This document shows, one piece after another, positions 29,408 through 42,271 of a stretch of 64,000 nt of DNA. This stretch comes from Desulfobacteraceae bacterium (GTDB taxonomy: Bacteria; Desulfobacterota; Desulfobacteria; Desulfobacterales; JAABSP01), in assembly GCA_011390065.1 (NCBI GenBank), contig JAABTD010000006.1, positions 16-64,015 of the forward strand. The letters are read 5' to 3'. Numbering within the stretch: the stretch's first letter is position 1; the number at the start of each line of letters is the position of its first letter. Under the pieces are notes generated by a model, which ran no database searches, was not told where the DNA came from, and was given only the letters and a program-made list of their open reading frames with translations. A program made the position numbers and the translations under genes.

Positions 29408-29649
29408 TAAATCCCCCTTTTCTCTGTGGGTGTTATTGCTGGAACCGACGATATTTTGTTCTTCTTAACGAAAACCCCTTTTTTTTGCAAGACGGGCTTT
29501 GCCGATGGATAATCCGGTTGCAGATTTGGGCAAAATGCGTTACAAGCCTTTCTTACCGGTATTTATTAATGATATCTGAAATTTGAGATATGAAACCCGC
29601 CGATCGGGGCAAATGCCGGAACAATCGTCAACATTGCCAGGGGGGCGGC

Positions 29650-30129
29650 ATGCTTGCACTGCTTTTCCACATCGGAGAAGTTCGATACATCATCAAATGC
29701 GACCGGATCCGGGAGATCGCGCCCATGGTCGCCCTGAAAGAGGCGCCCCAGGCCCCGGCCTATTTCGCGGGGTATTTCAACTACCGCGGCGCCATCGTGC
29801 CGGTCATCGACCTGTGTCAACTCATTCAAAATACCCCTTGTCGATTGCGGTTGTCCACCCGGATCATTCTGGTGGAGTACCGGCGAAACGCGTCGTCCCA
29901 TATCCTGGGACTCATCGCGGAACGGGTGACCGAGGCGGTGAAAAAGCCGGATGACGCCTTTGCCTCGGCCGGCATCCGGTCCAGAAAGGCCCCCTACCTG
30001 GGAGGAATCGTCATGGATGAGGACGAGATGATTCAGTGCCTGGAACTGGATCGTTTGCCCGACTGCATCGATTTCCTGCCCGAATCAGAAGCGGCGACCT
30101 GTGAAGGAGATGACGCAACAAGAGATTGA
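29650..30129 (+). CDS. cheW: CheW-like coupling protein (WspB-like position)
   Basis: CheW-domain pattern (LLFHIGEVRYIIKCDRIREIAPMVALKEAPQAPAYFAGYFNYRGAIVPVIDL). I prefer the ATG at 29650 with a G-rich SD over the ATG at 29590. Confidence 0.8.
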   Translation: MLALLFHIGEVRYIIKCDRIREIAPMVALKEAPQAPAYFAGYFNYRGAIVPVIDLCQLIQNTPCRLRLSTRIILVEYRRNASSHILGLIAERVTEAVKKPDDAFASAGIRSRKAPYLGGIVMDEDEMIQCLELDRLPDCIDFLPESEAATCEGDDATRD

Positions 30130-31438
30130 AGCGCTGCTGGACCAGCGCATCGGCCTTTCGCCCGGGTCTCTGGGCGGGGAAACGGTTTTAAAGGCCGTGG
30201 GGCGGCGGATGAAACATTGCGGCGTCTCCGATCCCCGGGCCTATCTGGCCTGCCTGCGGTCCTCTGAAGCGGAATGGGAAGCATTGCTGGAACTGGTGGT
30301 GGTGCCGGAAACCTGGTTTTTCCGCAACAAGGAATCCTTCGCTTTTCTGACCCGCCATGTCCGCACCGAATGGCTGTCCGAATCCGCCGGACCGGAGCTG
30401 CGGGTATTGAGCATCCCTTGCGCCTCCGGGGAGGAACCTTATTCTGTCGCCATGGCTCTGGCGGATACGGGTCTGGATCAGGATCGGGTGGCGATCGATG
30501 GTATGGACATCAGCCCGGCCGCCCTGGAAAAAGCCCGACAGGGGGTCTATGGACCCGAGGCCTTCCGAGGACGGAACCTCTCGTTTCGAGAGCGGTATTT
30601 CACCCCCGCGCCCGGCGGCCATCGGATCGATCCGAGCGTGAAAACCATGGTGCAATTCCAGCGGGCCAATCTTATGGAGGAAGGACGGTTTGCGGGGGTG
30701 AAGCCCTATGACGTCATTTTTTGTCGAAACCTCCTGATCTACCTGAGCGACCAGGGCAAAGAGCGGGCGCTGGCCGTGTTCGACCGGTTGCTGAAGCCCG
30801 GCGGCATCCTCTTCGTGGGACATGTGGAGCGATCCCTGATCCGAAATCCCGGGTTTCAGTGGATCAAGCAGCCCGGCGTCTTTGCCTGCCGGCGGACCGA
30901 TGGCGGTTCATCCCCGCCTATGGCGGAGGGCGACCGGAGTCCGTCCCCCCTCCGCCGATCCATTCGCCCCGCCATTCAATGGCCCCCCCTCGCTTCGCCT
31001 CCGTCCGTTTCCGAGACCGCTCCCCGACAGGGATCCTCGAAGGCCGCTCCGGGGCGCAGTTCGATGGATCATCGGCGTCGGTCGGCATCTTCTCCGATGC
31101 CGCCGCGCAAAGCGGCGGTTGTGGAGGGCTACCTGGTCCAGGCCCAGCGAATGGCGGATCAGGGAAAGATGGAAGACGCCTTCCGCCTGTGCGAAAAATC
31201 GGTGGGCGAAAACGCCTTCCACATTCAGGCCCATTTTCTCATGGGGCTGATCTGCCACGCCATGGATAACGAAGAGCGGGCCGAAGAGGCCTTCAACAAA
31301 GCGGTTTATCTGGACCCGAACCACCATGAGGCCATGAGTCATCTGGCGTTTATCATGGAGCACCGGGGAGAATGGGACAAGGCCGAACGGCTGCGGCGTC
31401 GGGCTCAGCGGATTCGGCAGAAGGAGGAAGGCCTGTGA
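30101..31438 (+). CDS. cheR: Chemotaxis methyltransferase CheR with C-terminal TPR (WspC-like)
   Basis: CheR motifs (ETWFFRNKESF, IPCASGEEPYS, IFCRNLLIYL), a Pro/Ser-rich linker and a TPR-like C-terminus. The start is GTG 30101 or ATG 30110; both overlap the cheW 3' end. Confidence 0.85.
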   Translation: MKEMTQQEIEALLDQRIGLSPGSLGGETVLKAVGRRMKHCGVSDPRAYLACLRSSEAEWEALLELVVVPETWFFRNKESFAFLTRHVRTEWLSESAGPELRVLSIPCASGEEPYSVAMALADTGLDQDRVAIDGMDISPAALEKARQGVYGPEAFRGRNLSFRERYFTPAPGGHRIDPSVKTMVQFQRANLMEEGRFAGVKPYDVIFCRNLLIYLSDQGKERALAVFDRLLKPGGILFVGHVERSLIRNPGFQWIKQPGVFACRRTDGGSSPPMAEGDRSPSPLRRSIRPAIQWPPLASPPSVSETAPRQGSSKAAPGRSSMDHRRRSASSPMPPRKAAVVEGYLVQAQRMADQGKMEDAFRLCEKSVGENAFHIQAHFLMGLICHAMDNEERAEEAFNKAVYLDPNHHEAMSHLAFIMEHRGEWDKAERLRRRAQRIRQKEEGL

Positions 31439-32145
31439 CGCCCCGGGCCGAGACAAAACCGGCGGCCTCGGCGGCGCCGGGGAATATCGCGGAATGCTGG
31501 CAGCGCATCGGGGTGTGGAGTGCAGAGAAAAGTTGTCCGACGCTCCAGGCGGTCATCCATTGCCGGAATTGCGAGGTCTTCATCCAGTCGGGGCGGCGGC
31601 TTCTGGATCAGGAACTGCCCCAGACCTACCGGAACGAATGGGCCGGGATCATGGCCTCGGAGAAGGAGGAGGATGAGCTGTTTCAAACGGTTTCGCTGGT
31701 TCTGTTCCGGGTCGAGGCGGAATGGCTGGCCCTTCGGACCCAGATCCTTTCCGAAGTCATTGATCCGCAGCCGCTCAAGCGCCATTCCCTTCCCCACCGA
31801 AAGAACCGGATACTGACGGGGATTATCAATGTGCGGGGGGAAATCCAGCTCTGCGTAAGCTTCAAAGACCTTCTGGGCATCGAGCAGGCGTCCGGGAAAG
31901 AGACCGGCCAGGCCCCCTATCAGCGGATGATGGTGATCAACAGCGACGACGGCAAATGGGTGTTTCCGGTCAGCGAGATCATCGGCATCTATCGGATCCA
32001 TCCCGCCACGTTTCAAAACGTTCCGGTGACGGTGGCCAAAGCCCAGTCCACCTTTACCAAGGGGATCTTCAAATGGGACGGCCGATATGTGGCCTTCCTG
32101 GATGACGAACTTTTGATTTACAGCCTTACCCGGAGCGTCCAATGA
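31435..32145 (+). CDS. cheW: CheW-like coupling protein with N-terminal Cys4 motif (WspD-like position)
   Basis: The GTG at 31435 overlaps the cheR stop (GTGA). It has the N-terminal motif CWQRIGVWSAEKSCPTLQAVIHCRNC, then a CheW domain (LVLFRVEAEWLALRTQ...INVRGEIQL). Confidence 0.8.
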   Translation: MTPRAETKPAASAAPGNIAECWQRIGVWSAEKSCPTLQAVIHCRNCEVFIQSGRRLLDQELPQTYRNEWAGIMASEKEEDELFQTVSLVLFRVEAEWLALRTQILSEVIDPQPLKRHSLPHRKNRILTGIINVRGEIQLCVSFKDLLGIEQASGKETGQAPYQRMMVINSDDGKWVFPVSEIIGIYRIHPATFQNVPVTVAKAQSTFTKGIFKWDGRYVAFLDDELLIYSLTRSVQ

Positions 32146-34583
32146 TCGGCGGCGGAACGGACCTGAGCGATTTCTCCATGCTGGATCTCTTCCGATCCGA
32201 GATGGAGATGCATGCCGGCGCCCTCAGCGAAGGACTGCTGGCCCTGGAAAACGATTCCGGGACCGCCAACGCGACGGATCACATCGAGTCCCTGATGCGG
32301 GCGGCCCATTCCATCAAAGGCGGCGCCCGGATTGTGGAACTGGATGCGGCCGTCAAGCTGGCCCACACCCTGGAGGACTGCTTTGTGGCCGCCCAGAAGG
32401 GAGAGCTTTCCCTCTCCTCGGATGACGTCGATGGACTGTTGCGGGGCGTGGACATGCTCAAACGCATTTCCGACGCTGCCGGAGAGGCGTATGACGACTG
32501 GCTGGCCGGCCATCAGCAGGAGATCGACGAACTGGCCGCCGCCATGACCCGGATTCATTCCCCCGGGAAAGCGGATGCCGGCTCGACCCGCGGCCGATCT
32601 CAACCGCCGACGCGGCGGCCCGGGGCTGAAACAGTCCCCGAACCGCCTCCTGATGCCGCGCCCCTCCCAGATGCCCCGTCCGAAAAAGCGGCGGCGCCCC
32701 GGGGCGCCCCATCCGAAAGGCCTCCGGAGCCCGACGCGCCGGCGACCGCCGCCGGGGAAGCCGCCCGCCGGTCGTCCCAGGCCCGGGAACCGGTCCCGGA
32801 GCGGAAAACGCCGGCCGGAAAGGATCGCATGGTCCGGGTGACGGCCGGCAAGATCGAACGTCTCATCTCCCTGGCCGGCGAGGTGGTGGTGAGCGTTCGA
32901 TGGCTGCCGCCTTTCTACGAGTCCATGGCGGCCCTGAAGAAGAGCCAGGACGAACTGATGTCAACCCTGGATGCGCTCCAGGAGATGGCCGAGGCCGGCG
33001 CGGAGGATCCCCGGAACGCCCGGACGATCCTCCAGACCGTTCATCAGGCCAGAGAAAAAGCCCGGGAGTGCAAGCAGCGGCTGGTCAGCCGGATCAACCG
33101 GCTGGAGGGCTTTACCAGTTCCTCGGAAAATCTTTCGGACCGTCTCTACCATGAAATCATCGGTGTCCGGATGCGTCCTTTTGCCGATGGCATTCAGCAC
33201 TTTCCGCGGATGGTGCGGGACCTGGCCCGGGAGCTGGGCAAAAAGGTCCGGTTCACCATCGCGGGCAAGAGCACCGAAGTGGACCGGGACATCCTGGAAA
33301 AGCTCGAGGCCCCGCTGAGCCACCTGTTGCGCAACGCCTTGGACCACGGCATCGAGCCCCCTGACATAAGAGCCGCGGCGGGGAAGCCCGAGACCGGAGA
33401 ACTCCGGCTGGAGGCGGCCCACCGGTCGGGAATGCTGATGATCACCATATCCGACGATGGCCGGGGGGTGGATCTGGACGAACTCCGGGCCAAGATTTTG
33501 AGCAAGGGTCTTACCAGCGCCGAAATGCTCCACAAGCTGACCGAACCCGAATTGATGGAATTTCTGTTCCTTCCCAGTTTTTCCACCCGGGACCAGGTCA
33601 CGGAGATCTCCGGCAGGGGGGTCGGACTGGATGTGGTCCACAGCATGGTCCACGAGGTGGGGGGCATCGTCCGCGCCGTTTCCCGGCCCGGCAGGGGGCT
33701 GAGCTTCCATCTGGAACTTCCCCTGACGCTTTCGGTGATTCGAACCTTCATCGTGGAGATCGCCGAAGAGAACTACGCCTTCCCGCTGGCCCGCATCGAC
33801 CGGTGCCTGACCCTGGCCCGGGAGGAGATCGACACGGTGGAGGACCGCCAGTATTTCCGGCTGGCCGACAAGAATGTTTCCCTGGTCAACGTCCGGGAGG
33901 TGCTGGAGCTGGAAAAGGCCGACGATCAGGTGGATCTCTTCCATCTGGTGGTCATCAGCGATCGGGTCCATTCCTATGGCCTGATGGTGGATGCGTTTAT
34001 CGGTGAATACGATCTGGTGGTCCGGCCCCTGGATTCGCGCCTGGGCAAAGTTTCAGACATCAGCGCCATGGCCATCATGCTCGACGGGGCGCCCGTGCTG
34101 ATCTTCGACGTGGAAGATCTGGTGCGGTCCATCGATTCCATGTTGACCGGCGCCCAGCGGCTCCGGAAGATCGGCCCATCGATCCGGGCGGCCGAGGAGC
34201 CGGACCGCAAACAGATTCTGGTGGTGGACGATTCCATTACGGTCCGGGAGATGGAGCGCAAGCTGTTGGAGAGCAAAGGATACCAGGTGGATGTGGCCGT
34301 GGACGGCATGGACGCCTGGAATCTGTTGCGGACCACTGCCAAAACCTACGATATGGTGGTGTCGGACATCGACATGCCGCGGATGAACGGCATCGAACTG
34401 ATCACCCAGATGAAGGGGCATGAAAAGTTCAAATCCCTGCCCGTTATGGTGGTATCCTACAAGAACACCGAGGAGGACCGGCTCAGGGGGATGGAGGCCG
34501 GGGCCAACTACTATCTGACCAAAAGCAGTTTCCAGGACAATTCGTTTATTGAAGCGGTGTTCGACTTGATCGGGGGACCATAA
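32142..34583 (+). CDS. cheA: Hybrid histidine kinase CheA-REC (WspE-like)
   Basis: Hpt HSIKGGA, a Pro/Ala-rich linker of about 90 aa, HATPase boxes (LRNALDHG, DDGRGVD, GRGVGLDVV), a CheW-like P5 domain and a C-terminal receiver (ILVVDDS...VVSDIDMPRMNG...YLTKS). The ATGA overlaps the upstream stop. Confidence 0.9.
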   Translation: MIGGGTDLSDFSMLDLFRSEMEMHAGALSEGLLALENDSGTANATDHIESLMRAAHSIKGGARIVELDAAVKLAHTLEDCFVAAQKGELSLSSDDVDGLLRGVDMLKRISDAAGEAYDDWLAGHQQEIDELAAAMTRIHSPGKADAGSTRGRSQPPTRRPGAETVPEPPPDAAPLPDAPSEKAAAPRGAPSERPPEPDAPATAAGEAARRSSQAREPVPERKTPAGKDRMVRVTAGKIERLISLAGEVVVSVRWLPPFYESMAALKKSQDELMSTLDALQEMAEAGAEDPRNARTILQTVHQAREKARECKQRLVSRINRLEGFTSSSENLSDRLYHEIIGVRMRPFADGIQHFPRMVRDLARELGKKVRFTIAGKSTEVDRDILEKLEAPLSHLLRNALDHGIEPPDIRAAAGKPETGELRLEAAHRSGMLMITISDDGRGVDLDELRAKILSKGLTSAEMLHKLTEPELMEFLFLPSFSTRDQVTEISGRGVGLDVVHSMVHEVGGIVRAVSRPGRGLSFHLELPLTLSVIRTFIVEIAEENYAFPLARIDRCLTLAREEIDTVEDRQYFRLADKNVSLVNVREVLELEKADDQVDLFHLVVISDRVHSYGLMVDAFIGEYDLVVRPLDSRLGKVSDISAMAIMLDGAPVLIFDVEDLVRSIDSMLTGAQRLRKIGPSIRAAEEPDRKQILVVDDSITVREMERKLLESKGYQVDVAVDGMDAWNLLRTTAKTYDMVVSDIDMPRMNGIELITQMKGHEKFKSLPVMVVSYKNTEEDRLRGMEAGANYYLTKSSFQDNSFIEAVFDLIGGP

Positions 34584-34597
34584 AGAAGAGAGGCGTC

Positions 34598-36796
34598 ATG
34601 AAAGGGAAGGTAAAAGAGCTGATGAAGCGGATGACCATCGCGAAAATGCTGTGGGGACTCGTCCTCATGGGCATCCTGGTCATTATCGGCCTTGCGGCGA
34701 CCAGCCTGCTGTCCAACAGTCGGCTGGTCAGGAGCCAGAACCGGCTCACCGAGATCGTCATGCCCATGGAACGGGCCAGCCAGAACCTTCGGGAGGCGGT
34801 GACGACCTTTGTGGGGCGGAAATATCTCATCACGGAAGCCGAGACCCTGGCGGAACTCGACGCCCTGGCCGAATCCACTGCCTATGAGAGCGTTTTCAAT
34901 CGCAACATCGATATTCTCAAGGAGCTGAACCGGAAAATGGCGGCCCTGTCATCGGACAGGGCCGCCGATTCTTCGACCCCAGGGCCTGCCGGCAGCGGAA
35001 AGGCCGATGGGCCGTCTGAACATCGCGACGATCTTTTCGAGTCGTTGCAGCGCCATCTGAAGATCGCGGCCGAGCAGAGCGCCGACATCTACAGCGTGGC
35101 CCGGACCCGAATAGAATTGAACCTCGCCATCCAGGAGAAGATCGCCCTGATGGATGCGCTGGGCGGACAACTCCACCAGGATGCCGAGCGCCTTGCCGAC
35201 CGGATCGTCAAAGCGATCCGGGAACAGTTGACCCCGGCCGGCCGGGCCGGAGAGCCCGCGGACCGGGCCGCGGAATTTTATCTGGCGGATTTGGCGGAGA
35301 CCCAGAAAACCAGCGTCGATCTGCGGCTCAATATCGCGTTTCTGACCAATTACGGACACAAGGCCCTGCTGCTGACCGATAAAGAGCGGATCACGGCGAT
35401 CAGAGCGGAAAACATGGTCCCCACGACGGAAAATATCCGGAGCGGGCTGGAAAAGCTTAAGCGGCGGGTCGCCGAATCCGAGGAGATGACCGGACTGCTG
35501 GAGCGGATCGAAGCGGCCTTCGGGCGGCTCCGCAATATCCTTCTGGACAGTGAAGACGGCATCGTCCGCCTTCAATCGCTCTGGCTGGCAAAGGAGGCGT
35601 CCATCGCCGACAAAAACGGGCGGTTGAATCAGACCACCGATGCGCTCATGTCCGGTCTGGACCGCCTTCAAACCCTCTCCGACCGGGTGCGCAACCGGGC
35701 CGAATCCGAGGCCCGGCGGGTCCAGGGCGTCTGGAAAATCATCCTGCTGGTCAGCCTCATCGCCATCGCGGCCATGGCCATGATAGGGCGGCGGATTCAT
35801 CGTCGGATCATGGGGCCCATCAACCGGACCGTTCAATTCGCAGAAGCCATCTCCGAGGGGGATTTGACGGCGGAGATCGAAAAGATCCATGAGGACGAGG
35901 TGGGCCTGCTCATCGCCAAACTGAGCGAGATGGCGCACAATCTCAACGCCCTGATCGGCCAGGTGCAGCGGTCCGGCATCCAGGTGACCTCCTCGGCCAC
36001 CGAATTGTCGGCCACGTCCAAACAGCAGGAAGCGGTCATGCGGACCCAGGTGGAATCCACCAACAACGTGGTTCAGTCGGTGGCCGAAATCTCCAACATC
36101 TCGGAGGAACTGGTGGAGACCATGAAAAAAGTAGCGGCCATGTCCGAACAGACGGCCGATTACGCGAATTCGGGCCAGGACAATCTCGCCCAGATGGAAG
36201 AGGCCATGCAGCACATGGAGAGCGCTTCCAGGTCGATCTCAGGCAAGCTGGAGACCATCAATGAAAAGGCCGCCAACATCACCTCGGTGGTAACCACCAT
36301 CACCAAAGTGGCCGATCAGACCAACCTCCTGTCCTTAAACGCCGCCATCGAAGCGGAAAAGGCCGGGGAATACGGCCGCGGCTTCACCGTCGTGGCCCGG
36401 GAGATCCGTCGGCTGGCCGATCAGACGGCCGTGGCCACCCTGGACATCGATCAGATGGTCCAGGAGATGCAGTCGGCTGTCTCGGCCGGCGTGATGGAGA
36501 TGGACGCCTTTATCGCCGAAGTCCAGCGGAGCGCTGAAAATGTGGGCCAGATCAGCACCCAGCTCACCCGGATCATCGAACAGGTCAAGTCCCTGACGCC
36601 CAGTTTCGAGGGGGTCAACGAATCCATGCAGTTCCAGTCGGAGAACGCCCAGCAGATCAACGCCGCCATGGTCAACCTGAGCGAGGAGATGCAGCAGACC
36701 GTGGAATCGCTCCAGGAATCCTTTATGGCCATTGAACAGCTCAACGATGCGGCCCGCGGTCTCCAGGACGAGGTCTCCCGGTTCAAGGTCGCTTAA
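34598..36796 (+). CDS. Methyl-accepting chemotaxis protein (WspA-like), large helical periplasmic domain
   Basis: TM1 at aa about 15-37, a helical sensor region of about 340 aa, TM2 (IILLVSLIAIAAMAMIG), HAMP and the MA hairpin TNLLSLNAAIEAEKAGEYGRGFTVVAREIRRLADQT. Confidence 0.9.
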   Translation: MKGKVKELMKRMTIAKMLWGLVLMGILVIIGLAATSLLSNSRLVRSQNRLTEIVMPMERASQNLREAVTTFVGRKYLITEAETLAELDALAESTAYESVFNRNIDILKELNRKMAALSSDRAADSSTPGPAGSGKADGPSEHRDDLFESLQRHLKIAAEQSADIYSVARTRIELNLAIQEKIALMDALGGQLHQDAERLADRIVKAIREQLTPAGRAGEPADRAAEFYLADLAETQKTSVDLRLNIAFLTNYGHKALLLTDKERITAIRAENMVPTTENIRSGLEKLKRRVAESEEMTGLLERIEAAFGRLRNILLDSEDGIVRLQSLWLAKEASIADKNGRLNQTTDALMSGLDRLQTLSDRVRNRAESEARRVQGVWKIILLVSLIAIAAMAMIGRRIHRRIMGPINRTVQFAEAISEGDLTAEIEKIHEDEVGLLIAKLSEMAHNLNALIGQVQRSGIQVTSSATELSATSKQQEAVMRTQVESTNNVVQSVAEISNISEELVETMKKVAAMSEQTADYANSGQDNLAQMEEAMQHMESASRSISGKLETINEKAANITSVVTTITKVADQTNLLSLNAAIEAEKAGEYGRGFTVVAREIRRLADQTAVATLDIDQMVQEMQSAVSAGVMEMDAFIAEVQRSAENVGQISTQLTRIIEQVKSLTPSFEGVNESMQFQSENAQQINAAMVNLSEEMQQTVESLQESFMAIEQLNDAARGLQDEVSRFKVA

Positions 36797-36814: not shown

Positions 36815-37903
36815 ATGAGAATCGCCCTTGTCAATGATCTGGTTATGGCGGTGGAAAGCCTGCGGCGCATCCTGCTGAGCGTCCCCGGACATGAGATCGC
36901 CTGGGTGGCCCGGGATGGCCGGGAAGCCGTTACCCGATGCAGCCGTGACCTGCCGGATCTGATCCTGATGGACCTGTTCATGCCGGGAATGGACGGGGTC
37001 GAGGCCACCCGCCGGATCATGGCCGCCACTCCCTGTCCCATTCTGATCGTCACGGCCACCGTGGGCAATCATGCGGCCAAGGTCTTCGAGGCCATGGGGC
37101 ACGGCGCCTTGGACGCCGTCAACATTCCCATGATGGGCGCCGGGGCCGAGGCCCAACGAAGCCGTTACACCTTGTTGCGCAAGGTCCATGTCATTTCCCG
37201 GCTTCGGGGTCTCCCCTCCACCAGCCCGGCCAAACGGGCGTACATGGATCCTCCGCCCCCGATAGTGGCCATCGGCGCCTCCACCGGCGGCCCCAAAGCG
37301 TTGGCCGATTTGTTGTCGACCCTTCCCTGTCCCCTGGGCGCCGCGGTGGTGATCGTGCAGCATGTGGATGAAAAATTCTCCGCCGGACTGGCCGAATGGC
37401 TCGACGGCCAGACGCCTCTGCCCGTGCAGCTGGCGGCGGAGGGCGGACGTCCCCGGGCGGACGCCGTCTACCTGGCGGGCACCAACGATCATCTGGTGAT
37501 GAGTTCCGGCCTGAGCTTTTCCTATACGCCGGAGCCGGGCCGCACCCCTTACCGGCCCTCGGTGGACATCTTCTTTCGCAGCCTGGCGATCCATTGGCCG
37601 GTGGACCCGCATCCCGACGGTTCGTCCGGTTGCGCGGCCGCCATCGCCGTGCTGTTGACCGGCATGGGGCGTGACGGCGCTGAAGGGTTGGCGATTCTCC
37701 GGAAGGAGGGGTGGCGCACCATCGCCCAAGACAGGGCCACCAGCATCGTTTACGGCATGCCCAAGGCCGCCAAGGATCTGAACGCGGCAGTGGAGATCCT
37801 TCCCATCCTGGAAATCGGTCCCGCCATTGTCCGGGCCCTGCGGCGGACCACCCTCTGCGAACCGGACCAATTCAACGGCGAACCGACGGCAAGGCTTCCA
37901 TGA
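36815..37903 (+). CDS. cheB: Protein-glutamate methylesterase CheB (REC plus esterase; WspF-like)
   Basis: Receiver (IALVNDL...[13 protein letters not shown]) followed by a CheB esterase ([34 protein letters not shown]). Confidence 0.92.
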
Positions 37904-39402
37904 GCCGCGATGAGAGACATACCCCCGCCGGCAACGGCGTCGGCGGGCTGACCCAGCACCGGATCACCGTCCTGCTGGTGGACGACCAGGCCATCATCGG
38001 CGAGGCGGTCCGGCGGATGCTGACCGAAGAGGAGGACATCGACTTCCATTACTGTCAGGACGCCACGCTGGCCATCAAAACCGCCGAAAGGATTTCCCCT
38101 ACGGTGATCCTCCAGGATTTGGTCATGCCGGAAATCGACGGGTTGATGCTGGTGCGCTATTTCCGGGCCAACCCGGCAACCCGGGAGGTGCCGCTCATCG
38201 TACTGTCGGGCAAGGAAGAGCCCTTGACCAAGGCGGATGCCTTCGCCGTCGGCGCCAATGATTATCTGGTGAAACTGCCGGACCGGTTGGAGGTCGTGGC
38301 CCGGATCCGCCACCATTCCCAGGGGTACATCAACCTGCTCCAGCGAAATGAAGCCTTCAAGGCGCTGAAAGATAGTGAAAAACAACTGGAGATTCGCAAC
38401 CGGTTCATTCGGGAAACTTTCGGCCGATACCTGTCCGACGACATCGTGGACAACATCCTGGAATCGCCGGAGGGGATGAGGCTGGGGGGCGAAAAGCGAA
38501 TGGCCACCATCATGATGACCGATCTGCGCGGATTCACCGCCATCAGCGAGCGTCTGGCCGCCGAAGAGGTGGTGCGGATCATCAATAATTATCTGGAGGT
38601 GATGACGGACATCATTCTCAAATACCAGGGAACCATCGACGAGTTTATCGGCGATGCCATCCTGGTGATTTTCGGCGCGCCCATCCGGCGGGAGGACGAC
38701 GCCGAGCGGGCCATGGCCTGCGCCATCGAAATGCAGATGGCCATGGAGATCGTCAACGAGCGGAACCGGGCCTCCGGGGTTCCCGAAGTGGCCCAGGGCA
38801 TCGGCATCAACACCGGCGAAGTGGTGGTGGGCAACATTGGGTCCGAAAAACGGTCCAAATACGGCGTGGTGGGCCGGAACGTCAACCTGACCGCCCGCAT
38901 CGAATCCTACACCGTGGGCGGGCAGACCCTGATTTCCGAGAGCACGCTTTCGGCCTGCGGACCCATCCTCCGCATCGACGACCAGACCGAGGTGATGCCC
39001 AAGGGCGTCAAGGAGCCCATCACCATTTACGAGATCGGGGGCATCGGGGGGAAGCACAACCTCTATCTGCCGGAAAAAACCCCGCCCGAGATGATCGAGC
39101 TGAGCCATCCCCTGGGCATCCAGTTCACGGAGTTGAACGAAAAGGACACCCAGGAGGCGGCCCACAAGGGCGTCATCCGACGGCTGGCGGCCGAGGCGGC
39201 CGAGGTGGCCGCGGAGGTCGACGTGGGGCGGCTGACCAACATCAAGATCTCCCTGTTCGACGAGGAAGGGTACGAGATCACGACGGATCTGTACGCCAAG
39301 GTGACCCGGAACCTGTCGGCGTCCCCGGCCGAGTTCGTCGTCATTTTCACCTCGGTGCCGCCGGAGGCCAAATCCTTTTTCAGATACCGATACAATTTTT
39401 AG
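37900..39402 (+). CDS. Response regulator with class III adenylate/guanylate cyclase domain and an unassigned C-terminal domain of about 110 aa
   Basis: The ATG at 37900 overlaps the cheB stop (ATGA). REC (VLLVDDQ...[12 protein letters not shown]...YLVKLP), a helical linker, and a cyclase core ([48 protein letters not shown]). Confidence 0.88.
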
Positions 39403-39458
39403 CGCCATTGACATGGATGCGCCATGCCCAGCCGGAAGATCCGGAAAAAGGATTGCAC

Positions 39459-40250
39459 ATGAAGATTAGATTTCTTGGCGTCGGTTCCGCGTTCACGACG
39501 CCGGAACATTACCAGTCGAACCTTCTGATCACGGCCCCCAGCGGGCGGAACATGCTGGTGGATTGCGGAACCGATATCCGGTTTTCACTCCGGGAAGGCT
39601 TGCCGGACAACGCGCTGCCCTACGAGGCGATCGATGCGGTTTATATTTCCCATCTCCATTCCGACCATATCGGCGGCATGGAGTGGCTGGCCTTTTTAAC
39701 CTATTTCAACCCCCATCAGCCGCGGCTCCGGCTTTACATGGAAGAGGCGACCATGCGGGAGATGTGGCGCACGTCTCTCAAGGGCGGGCTCGGCTGTATC
39801 CAGGGGAAGCGGATGCACCTGACCGATTATTTCGACTGCCGTCCGGTGGCGGTCAACGGGTCGTTCATTTGGGAGTCGATCCGGTTTACCCTGGTGCGGA
39901 TGCTGCATATCAGCACCGGATACCGGGATTTTTACAGCTACGGTCTTTTAATGGCCGATGCCCGCAAGGCGGGACCGGCGATTTTTTTCACCACCGACAC
40001 CCAGTACCGGCCCCATTTGCTGCGGGATATCGCACAGGATGCCGCGCTCATCTTCCATGATTGCGAAACCAGTCCGGTCAGAAGCATCGTCCACGCCCAT
40101 TACCTGGACCTCCGGGAACTGCCGGCCGCGTTGCGAACCAAAATGTGGCTCTATCATTATCAACCCGATCCGAAATTCGATCCGGAGGCGGATGGGTTCC
40201 GGGGGTTTGTCCGGAAGGGGCAGGAATTCGACCTGGAGGGTCTCATCTGA
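39459..40250 (+). CDS. MBL-fold metallo-hydrolase
   Basis: HLHSDHIGG (HxHxDH) motif. ATG at 39459 after an AAGGA SD, 56 nt downstream of the cyclase gene on the same strand. Confidence 0.75.
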   Translation: MKIRFLGVGSAFTTPEHYQSNLLITAPSGRNMLVDCGTDIRFSLREGLPDNALPYEAIDAVYISHLHSDHIGGMEWLAFLTYFNPHQPRLRLYMEEATMREMWRTSLKGGLGCIQGKRMHLTDYFDCRPVAVNGSFIWESIRFTLVRMLHISTGYRDFYSYGLLMADARKAGPAIFFTTDTQYRPHLLRDIAQDAALIFHDCETSPVRSIVHAHYLDLRELPAALRTKMWLYHYQPDPKFDPEADGFRGFVRKGQEFDLEGLI

Positions 40251-40260
40251 CGGTTAAACG

Positions 40261-41196
40261 CTAAAACGGTTGACCCGGTCCTCTGAGCAGCGCCAGAGAG
40301 ACGTAGTTCACCAGTCCCCAGATGGCGTCGGCGGCAAAAATCCGCTCGATGGCGCGGTCGAAGAGGATGGAGATCCGGGGCGGATACTCCCGGTCCCCCT
40401 CCCACAACAGGTAATAGAGCGGGACCCGGGGGAAAATGCGCAGCTGGAACGACGCGTCGGCCATCTCCATGGGCGCGCCGGACAGAAAACGGGCGGCCCG
40501 GCGGAACCCCTCCGGGTCGTCGCCGTAGCGTTCCAGCAGATGATCCGTCCGCAGCTCATGGGGGCCCTGGAAGAAATGGGCCTCTTTCAGGTCCTTGGGG
40601 CCCACGATCTCCTTGCCTAAAGGATAAACGCCCGCCACGTTGTTCAGATAGATCAGGGCGATCAATTCCAGAAGAGGATCGTCGGTTTCCTCCCATCCAT
40701 TTTTCTTGGGCCGCATCAGACGCCGACCAGGGATATCCACACGAATTTTTTCGTTTAGACAGTGTAAGACCAGCGCCGCGGCCGGGGCGGCGGCGGGATC
40801 GGGGTCGGCCAGGGTGAGGGTGCACAGATGGTGGACGTCCCGGGCCTGGAGTGCGTCCCAATATTCAGTGGGAACGGTGACGGGCGCGTTGTTGGGAGAC
40901 GTGGCCGGCGGTCGCTGCCGTATGCGGCGTTGCTGCATGTCTATAAATCCTTCGCTGAAAGGGTAGGGGCCGATCCGGAAATTGTCGCAGGGGAAAGCGT
41001 CGCAGTCCCGCGGACAATAAGCCAGTTGGTTCAGGGCTGCGCATTCCAGTATGGCGCAAGTCCCCCCGAAGGTCCGCTGCTGGGCCGCCAGCTTTCTCCG
41101 GGCGTCCGGGCTTTTGCCGGCGCCGCAGGTGGAACAGGTTCCCAATAGTCTCAATTTGCAAACATCGCAATTGATGCCGCAGGCTCCGGTGGGCAT
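40261..41196 (-). CDS. Cys-rich hypothetical protein (DUF3795-like N-terminus plus DUF3786-like C-terminal domain)
   Basis: The N-terminal ~70 aa contain 10 Cys (ACGINCDVCKL..GTCSTCG...CAILEC...YCPRDCDAFPC). The C-terminal region resembles DUF3786 proteins of anaerobes. The family call is from memory. Confidence 0.55.
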   Translation of the reverse strand: MPTGACGINCDVCKLRLLGTCSTCGAGKSPDARRKLAAQQRTFGGTCAILECAALNQLAYCPRDCDAFPCDNFRIGPYPFSEGFIDMQQRRIRQRPPATSPNNAPVTVPTEYWDALQARDVHHLCTLTLADPDPAAAPAAALVLHCLNEKIRVDIPGRRLMRPKKNGWEETDDPLLELIALIYLNNVAGVYPLGKEIVGPKDLKEAHFFQGPHELRTDHLLERYGDDPEGFRRAARFLSGAPMEMADASFQLRIFPRVPLYYLLWEGDREYPPRISILFDRAIERIFAADAIWGLVNYVSLALLRGPGQPF

Positions 41197-41289
41197 GGCG
41201 CCGCTTCTCCATTCATGGGTGTTATCCGCTCTATTGCTGATCTTAGCCCCTCTTCCCCGACGCTGTCAAGCGCGGCGCGCCCCGCGGCA

Positions 41290-41318
41290 TTGAAACTTCC
41301 CCACCCCTGTGTTATGTT
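41290..41318 (+). promoter_or_regulatory. Sigma70-like promoter candidate for the second MBL hydrolase
   Basis: TTGAAA, 17 nt spacer, TATGTT, about 45 nt upstream of the ATG at 41366. Confidence 0.4.
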
Positions 41319-41365
41319 GGATTTTGCTCAACTGACTGGAAACCGAATGTCGAGGCTTGACGCAC

Positions 41366-42271
41366 ATGCGCCTTGAGGACCGCAACGATGTTGCCCATCT
41401 GACCCATACGCTCTACCGGATCGAAGGTCCCAACCGATCGAAATTCCCCTTTTGCGCCGGTTATCTGTTCGTTGACAAGGCCGTCGTCCTCATTGACGCC
41501 GGCATCGGCGAGGCCAAGATAAAGGAGATCGACAAAGAAACGCCCATCGACATTCTGATCCTGAGCCACTCCCATCCGGACCATATGCTGTCATGGCATG
41601 TCCTTTCCGATCGGCGGATTCTGGTTCCCAATGAGACGCCGCAGATGGCGGACCTGGAGGACATGGGGCGGCGATTGACCGGCAGCTCCGACAAGGGGGC
41701 CTACTGGGCCAAGGTGCTGGGCCGGCCCCTGGGCCTGCGGCCCCTGCGGGAGCCCGATGGCCGGTTCGGCAACCGGAGTCTCCTGAAAATGGGGACCACC
41801 CATTTGGAAGCGATTCACTGTCCGGGCCATCTCGCAGATCATTACTGCTTTTTCGATCGGACCAGCGGGGTTCTGCTGACCACCGACATCGAGCTTGGCG
41901 CCTTCGGCCCCTGGTACGGCAACGCGGAATGCGACATCGATCAGTATAAAAAAAGCGTTCGACGTTTAATGAAGTTTCCGGCAGTCAAGCTGTGCCCCTC
42001 CCACAAACCCCCTGTCAACGAGAATACGGAGACGGTTCTGGCGGACTTTCTTCAGGGGTTTGACCGACACCGCCGAATCATTCTTGAATTGTGTTCGCCG
42101 CCTCGCTCGCTCCAGCAGATGGTCTCCCTCTCCCCTTTTTATCGGAACCGGTTGCCCGATAAAATCCTGCAGCGGATTTTCGAGGAGCCGATGATCGTAA
42201 AAAATCTCGACCTTCTCCTTCGGGAGGGAGTGATTGAGGAAAAATTCGGACATTATCGACGGATCGATTGA
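41366..42271 (+). CDS. MBL-fold metallo-hydrolase
   Basis: ILSHSHPDH (HxHxDH) motif, with later HCPGH and SH residues. The start is ATG 41366; the ORF track lists a TTG at 41357. Confidence 0.75.

Follow-up and report, generated by a model that had tools for sequence, protein, structure and literature searches.

A Wsp-like chemosensory operon of a Desulfobacteraceae bacterium with a predicted Cya2-type guanylate cyclase as its output

With what does a chemosensory pathway signal when its response regulator carries a class III cyclase in the place of a GGDEF domain? The question is raised by the window analysed here, a stretch of 64,000 nucleotides from contig JAABTD010000006.1 of a sulfate-reducing Desulfobacteraceae bacterium (GenBank assembly GCA_011390065.1), in which an operon of Che genes closes with a gene (37900..39402, + strand) for a 500-residue protein composed of a receiver (REC), a helical stalk, a cyclase transducer element (CTE), a cyclase domain and a PilZ-like domain. 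Pfam places the receiver at residues 24-136 and a Guanylate_cyc domain at residues 201-377 (E = 2.2e-24; its 86.5 bits exceed the gathering score of 21.9). The latter agrees with the span of 38491-39039 that an earlier reading of the bare sequence, the original prediction, had given for a cyclase thought to use GTP rather than ATP. No Pfam match to GGDEF is found in the protein, and Guanylate_cyc is its output domain. We consider it reasonably likely that the gene encodes a response-regulator guanylate cyclase that is gated by phosphorylation and through which a Wsp-like (ACF-class) chemosensory pathway delivers its signal; the messenger would probably be cyclic GMP (cGMP) and not cyclic di-GMP (c-di-GMP). 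The observed basis consists of sequence features, homologies, operon structure and the conservation of these.

The catalytic domain (residues 194-390, 38479..39069, + strand) is of the type of Cya2 (sll0646) from Synechocystis sp. PCC 6803. The crystal structure of Cya2 (PDB 2w01; Rauch et al. 2008) is the best match among solved structures in phmmer searches (E = 2.3e-67 when the whole protein is the query, 2.8e-68 and 232 bits when the domain is used by itself), and a chimera of Cya2-E488K with a phytochrome (6fht) is matched as well, whereas the closest adenylate cyclase structure, 3r5g, scores 1.7e-40 with the same domain. Foldseek, given an AlphaFold2 (AF2) model of the protein, returns 6fht, WspR and Cya2 (2w01) at the top. 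The alignment with 2w01 extends over 197 residues, of which 109 (55%) are identical, at a constant numbering offset of 240; since it is gapless, residue equivalence is unambiguous. The active site of Cya2 has been listed as D448, R450, E488, D492, G562, N569, R573 and K608 (PMC6005667). The corresponding residues here are D208, R210, E248, D252, G322, N329, R333 and K368, all eight reproduced, so that the base-specifying pair and the metal, phosphate and transition-state residues are common to the two proteins. Around the pocket (residues 300-342), 38 of 43 residues are identical.

The two positions that specify the base are accordingly Glu248 (codon gag, 38641..38643, + strand, in TIDEFIGD), which falls on Cya2 Glu488, and Gly322 (codon ggc, 38863..38865, + strand, in KYGVVG), which falls on Cya2 Gly562; they are not Lys with Asp or Thr. 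A scripted check finds these residues, and the metal-binding aspartates D208 (in MMTDLRGFT, codon at 38521) and D252 (codon at 38653), exactly where the original prediction had put them, and the alignment bears out its statement that the metal ligands and the other catalytic residues are present. The transition-state Asn and Arg of the NVNLTAR motif are also there, as it had said, but its numbering of them as N327 and R332 is wrong: by the gapless alignment they are N329 and R333, residue 332 being an alanine and therefore not the transition-state Arg. A Glu-Gly pair in Cya2, to which the original prediction had pointed, is verified in the literature, together with a preference for GTP (PMC6005667; PMC4215837). 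Cya2 is, moreover, biochemically proven to be GTP-specific, and the single substitution E488K suffices to convert it to an adenylate cyclase (PMC5995499). An identity of 55% to such an enzyme, with the same pair, supports GTP over ATP at the level of sequence, and by this homology we predict GTP specificity with moderate confidence.

Is the pair an accident of one gene? The family was taken as the 120 closest homologues, full-length REC-cyclases that are 67-93% identical. Glu stands at the first position in all 120 and Gly at the second in 116; D208 is conserved in 119, and D252, R210, N329, R333 and K368 are each conserved in 120. The genome assembly (5.04 Mb, 464 contigs) encodes seven class III cyclase domains; the six others have Lys first and Thr or Ser second, and Glu/Gly occurs in this protein alone. 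A maximum-likelihood tree of catalytic domains splits a Glu clade, comprising Cya2, the protein under study and its relatives, from the Lys/Thr cyclases (the genome's own paralogues and Pseudomonas aeruginosa CyaB) with support of 98/96. By the testimony of alignment and tree, the Glu/Gly pair is no chance feature. The same conservation bears on a different proposal, that the cyclase domain has no catalytic activity and that the protein serves the Che pathway solely as a scaffold or as a sink for phosphate. Some ACF pathways do use receiver domains as phosphate sinks, and nothing specific favours the proposal here. All the catalytic residues are present and are invariant or nearly so in the 120 homologues, and a dedicated phosphodiesterase gene, described below, is conserved along with the cyclase; we give a silent domain almost no credence.

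Several considerations weigh against GTP specificity and need to be set beside this evidence. One pocket difference is noted: the position of Cya2 Tyr572 is occupied by Ala332 (38893..38895, + strand), and of the 120 family members 81 have Ser there and 35 have Ala. In the account that PMC4215837 gives of the work of Rauch et al., Tyr572 strongly enhances the guanylate cyclase activity of Cya2 and leaves adenylate cyclase activity unaffected. In the distant cyclase Ma1120, the double substitution K101E/D157G, which creates a Glu/Gly pair accompanied by Ala, gives a kcat/Km (x10^6) of 1.92 with ATP and of 0.29 with GTP, and adding Tyr to that pair merely equalised the two substrates (PMC4215837). 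A review attributes the specificity of Cya2 to turnover and to a steric contribution of Tyr and Gly, not to Glu alone (PMC6005667). Public annotation, which is automatic, calls members of the family 'adenylate cyclase' or 'response regulator'. No enzymology of this cyclase or of any family member was found in the literature. The catalytic core of the AF2 monomer is also poor, the predicted local distance difference test (pLDDT) score falling below 50 at about residues 169-211, 242-264 and 304-335; the model consequently adds nothing on pocket geometry and is left out of that argument.

These points argue for an adenylate cyclase or for an enzyme of dual specificity that makes cyclic AMP (cAMP) as well as cGMP, a Glu/Gly pair without the tyrosine of Cya2 being insufficient to exclude ATP. 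We judge this unlikely, although the choice of substrate by an enzyme lacking that tyrosine is the chief uncertainty of our reading. Ma1120 is a distant scaffold for comparison (E about 1e-12 to the 500-residue protein), whereas Cya2 is the 55% identical relative. A carboxylate replacing the adenine-binding Lys is what distinguishes the proven guanylate cyclases, and Cya2 must acquire E488K before it makes cAMP. The Lys/Thr cyclases in the alignment likewise have a small residue (Ser, Asn) before the catalytic Arg, so that Ser or Ala at this place is no marker of ATP use in itself. The eukaryotic guanylate cyclases with a Glu/Cys pair also have a small residue at the position of Tyr572. The genome, finally, already holds its six Lys/Thr cyclases.

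How might a guanylate cyclase of this kind be switched? The N-terminal half of the protein, a receiver of the WspR type with its helical stalk (residues 23-174, 37966..38421, + strand), is the candidate switch. Residues 15-172 align without a gap to P. aeruginosa WspR (PA3702; 3bre) at 59% identity over 158 residues (E = 1.2e-55), and P. syringae WspR (3i5a) is matched too. D73 coincides with the phospho-acceptor Asp of WspR, the surrounding VILQDLVMP is identical, and D28, D29, D73 and K125 are invariant across the family. The AF2 model has the receiver followed by a single continuous helix, residues 129-174, running into FGRY (residues 174-177, 38419..38430, + strand), the motif of the cyclase transducer element as defined in PMC5995499; its F174 and G175 are invariant across the family. 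An FGRY transducer lies upstream of the core of Cya2 also, where, in contrast, the input consists of CHASE2 and transmembrane segments. WspR, for its part, has a GGDEF output where this protein has a class III mononucleotide cyclase and a PilZ-like domain, with cGMP the predicted product. Read from the two alignments together, the protein is in effect WspR with its GGDEF domain swapped for a Cya2-type cyclase. Metagenome-assembled genomes of Verrucomicrobiota, Kiritimatiellia, Planctomycetota and Acidobacteriota (loci L058-L065, L069, L074, L080) encode receivers and stalks of the WspR type with 64-74% identity to residues 16-163 of the protein, an unusually high conservation of a receiver module across phyla.

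The partners of WspR are present as well. Upstream of the cyclase, all on the + strand, lie genes for a CheW coupling protein in the position of WspB (29590..30129; Pfam CheW, 8.5e-24), a WspC-like CheR methyltransferase with C-terminal TPR (30101..31438; Pfam CheR, 7.4e-45, and TPR_2/TPR_1), a second CheW in the position of WspD with a Cys-rich N-terminal extension (31372..32145; Pfam CheW, 2.9e-18, residues 109-250), a WspE-like CheA-REC hybrid histidine kinase, the presumed phosphodonor (32142..34583; Pfam Hpt, H-kinase_dim, HATPase_c, CheW and Response_reg), a membrane chemoreceptor of the methyl-accepting (MCP) type with HAMP (34598..36796; Pfam MCPsignal, 2.2e-31, and HAMP), the translation of which has hydrophobic segments near residues 15-35 and 385-405, and a WspF-like CheB methylesterase (36815..37903; Pfam CheB_methylest, 2.3e-51, and REC). 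With the cyclase these make seven tightly packed genes on one strand. ATGA overlaps join cheW2 to cheA and cheB to the cyclase gene, and the other junctions are overlaps or gaps of 14-18 nucleotides. The cyclase gene thus comes last in a Che operon and is translationally coupled to the gene before it, and the genetic context supports the Che control that the original prediction had proposed. The Wsp (ACF-class) gene set is complete in the cluster (MCP, two CheW, CheR-TPR, CheA-REC hybrid and CheB), and a CheR with TPR marks pathways of the ACF type (PMC3447774).

The order of the genes differs from that of Wsp in one respect: there the MCP gene comes first, whereas in this window it stands between cheA and cheB. 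Two loci in other assemblies, L020 and L021, have the exact Wsp order of MCP, CheW, CheR, CheW, CheA-REC, CheB and REC-cyclase, and CheB lies directly upstream of the cyclase in 13 of 15 distinct full-length orthologue loci. At L020 (11479-12693) and L021 (13135-15077) the operon extends further, to a REC-SpoIIE (PP2C) regulator, which at L020 has a receiver and stalk 72% identical to the cyclase receiver of the window; L021 additionally encodes an Hpt protein and an anti-sigma-type kinase with HATPase_c_2. The gene content of these two loci points to an additional output branch that would work by partner switching; this window has no such branch. The N-terminal extension of the second CheW, approximately 100 residues long, contains a C-x12-C-x8-C-x2-C arrangement (CWQRIGVWSAEKSCPTLQAVIHCRNC, window 31495-31572) that may constitute a metal site on the coupling protein.

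The cyclase is followed by a candidate eraser. A gene beginning 53 bases past the cyclase stop (39456..40250, + strand) encodes a 264-residue protein of the metallo-beta-lactamase (MBL) fold, which matches the Apyc1 family PF23023 (1.7e-22; 80.5 bits, where the cut-off is 50) and, over its full length, the Apyc1 structures 7T28 (1.1e-26), 7U2R and 7U2S (1e-26 to 2e-23 by phmmer; Hobbs et al. 2022). The HxHxDH metal motif is present as HLHSDH. Apyc1-like enzymes are cyclic-mononucleotide phosphodiesterases, and related bacterial MBL phosphodiesterases can prefer cAMP or cGMP (PMC9117128). The MBL gene is directly downstream of the cyclase in 10 of the 15 distinct full-length orthologue loci, and the arrangement CheB-cyclase-phosphodiesterase recurs in orthologues of other Desulfobacterales. 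Given the Apyc1-family match and this co-conservation, we read the MBL protein as the paired, predicted eraser of the cyclase product. Apyc1 is a phage anti-defence gene, whereas this relative is chromosomal and conserved with a signalling cyclase.

An Apyc1-like neighbour calls Pycsar to mind, and with it the thought that the product is not a purine nucleotide but cyclic CMP or cyclic UMP, degraded next door in a housekeeping relative of Pycsar chemistry. PycC models of PADLOC do recognise the catalytic domain (1.3e-23 and 81.7 bits for the best of them), and phage members of the Apyc1 family have a relaxed specificity that includes pyrimidines (PMC9117128). Yet 81.7 bits is no better than the 86.5 bits of the generic Pfam model and far below the 232 bits of the match to Cya2; the Tyr to Ala change should enlarge the base pocket instead of narrowing it; and Apyc1-related bacterial enzymes, as just mentioned, can prefer cAMP or cGMP. 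The gene resides in a Che operon, with no Pycsar effector adjacent. We take a pyrimidine product to be very improbable. Membership of Pycsar itself was considered and rejected, the PycC hidden Markov models matching at generic strength and no effector standing among the neighbours, which are Che genes and a phosphodiesterase gene.

If cGMP is the product, what receives it? A search of the whole genome for cNMP_binding domains, one of the effector classes named with the original prediction, yields 25 matches spread over about 22 proteins. None of the 25 lies on this contig, and the Arg-Thr signature seen in CgrA, a cGMP receptor, is missing from all of them. Both absences might be counted against a cGMP product; we grade them as neutral, and the survey neither supports nor refutes cGMP. 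(For Cya2, too, the literature still awaits a cGMP receptor.) Five of the cNMP_binding domains, on contigs C197, C438, C290, C232 and C15, have in common GE(V)FGE(M/I)SLL..GxP.GA and are without the Arg of the phosphate-binding cassette.

The remainder of the protein, residues 392-500 (109 residues, 39073..39399, + strand), has no Pfam match. Modelled alone with 28 homologues by AF2, it forms a confident beta-barrel (pLDDT 91.1), and the 22 top Foldseek matches in the PDB are all PilZ domains, with a query-normalised template-modelling (TM) score of 0.58-0.67 and a probability of 1.00, although at E values of just about 1e-3; weak Pfam PilZ matches appear in 3 of the 28 family members. The RxxxR and (D/N)xSxxG motifs for c-di-GMP are not visible by eye in the domain, and the family consensus begins EKxxxE. 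K393, K415, G424, Y465, K467 and T484 are invariant. The domain accompanies the Cya2-like catalytic domain in homologues with other N-termini. Cya2 likewise has a C-terminal extension after its core, about 110 residues long in our comparison; its length is given as 118 residues in PMC5995499, and it stimulates activity. Homology between this extension, which the PDB chains of Cya2 do not include, and the PilZ-like domain is plausible, with indirect support from CHASE2-type homologues that align through query residue approximately 494.

Put together, these elements suggest the following scheme. The membrane MCP would control the CheA-REC hybrid kinase by way of the two CheW proteins, with adaptation provided by CheR-TPR and CheB, and the kinase would phosphorylate Asp73 of the WspR-type receiver. 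The signal would then pass down a dimeric helical stalk and through the FGRY transducer, so that two catalytic domains could pair head to tail as a productive dimer, in which D208 and D252 should hold the metals, R210, R333 and K368 the phosphates and N329 the ribose. Guanine would be selected by Glu248, with Gly322 leaving room for it, and GTP converted to 3',5'-cGMP. The adjacent Apyc1-like phosphodiesterase would hydrolyse the product and reset the signal, and the PilZ-fold domain probably acts on the cyclase as a stimulator or modulator, in the manner of the C-terminal extension of Cya2. Compared with Cya2, the predicted guanylate cyclase of this window thus differs in its input, in Ala332 at the place of Tyr572 and in standing in a Che operon with a phosphodiesterase as neighbour.

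How far does the system extend? Close relatives of the protein are found in Desulfobacteraceae, Desulfococcaceae and Desulfonema. Of 301 genomes sampled from the class, 75 encode a homologue that reaches E <= 1e-60, and in 15 of them, the window's own included, the match covers nearly the whole query. The remaining genomes align from about residue 150 on, that is, over the cyclase core and mostly the PilZ-like region also; the N-termini of those shorter-matching homologues that were scanned are CHASE2, as in Cya2, dCache-HAMP, or without assignment. The CHASE2-type relatives have Tyr or Phe at the position of Cya2 Tyr572. Beyond the window's own locus, Glu occupies the first base-specifying position in 29 of 30 loci examined. 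Bacterial cGMP signalling rests on few studied cases, namely Cya2, the cysts of Rhodospirillum centenum and Xanthomonas, and the original prediction had stressed its rarity. That premise is weaker in this class: with Glu-type cyclases so common in it, the supposed rarity has to be tempered. The one locus of the 30 without Glu is L037 (1459-2970, genome G272), with a divergent full-length REC-cyclase paralogue, 54% identical, in which Thr/Asp replaces Glu/Gly, a natural variant that may have a different substrate.

The architecture itself has been seen before. In their 2012 survey, Munoz-Martinez et al. tabulate 'REC - CHD mononucleotidyl cyclase' for one cluster (D8FCI6) from the delta proteobacterium NaphS2 (PMC3447774). 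Such regulators in CheR-TPR/ACF clusters share architecture, cluster type and a related deltaproteobacterial lineage with the protein described here. The survey tabulates the architecture alone, with nothing on substrate specificity, a phosphodiesterase neighbour or the C-terminal domain, and its table is all that our literature search found on a Che- or Wsp-controlled guanylate cyclase; no paper was found that assigns GTP specificity to the REC-cyclase architecture or characterises it. In R. centenum, the relation of the Che3 cascade to cGMP is described in the literature as unresolved. What is new is the combination of a Wsp-type pathway with a Cya2-type cyclase, together with the co-conserved phosphodiesterase and the PilZ-fold domain.

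A Che-pathway receiver fused to a Cya2-type cyclase, with a phosphodiesterase of its own, would provide a direct route from a chemoreceptor to cGMP. Extending this to a complete and self-contained chemoreceptor-gated cGMP module of the Desulfobacterales, in which a Wsp-like array is joined to a writer, the REC-guanylate cyclase, and to an eraser, the Apyc1-like enzyme, and the degenerate PilZ fold serves as a nucleotide-sensing site, either for feedback by the product or for exchange with c-di-GMP signalling, is tentative, and we advance it with more doubt than conviction. Were it true, and counting also the numerous Glu-type cyclases of the class that are linked to CHASE2 or Cache domains, cGMP would belong to the mainstream second messengers of sulfate-reducing bacteria instead of being a rarity. 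Environmental Desulfobacterales carry the module in abundance, and a large family would be re-annotated if production of cGMP proved true. The REC-stalk-CTE junction, in which nature offers a design for a switchable guanylate cyclase, would also be of practical interest.

Farther downstream, a Cys-rich DUF3786 protein is encoded on the - strand between the gene for the Apyc1-like enzyme and a second, unrelated MBL-fold hydrolase at 41357-42271 (window 40261-42271).

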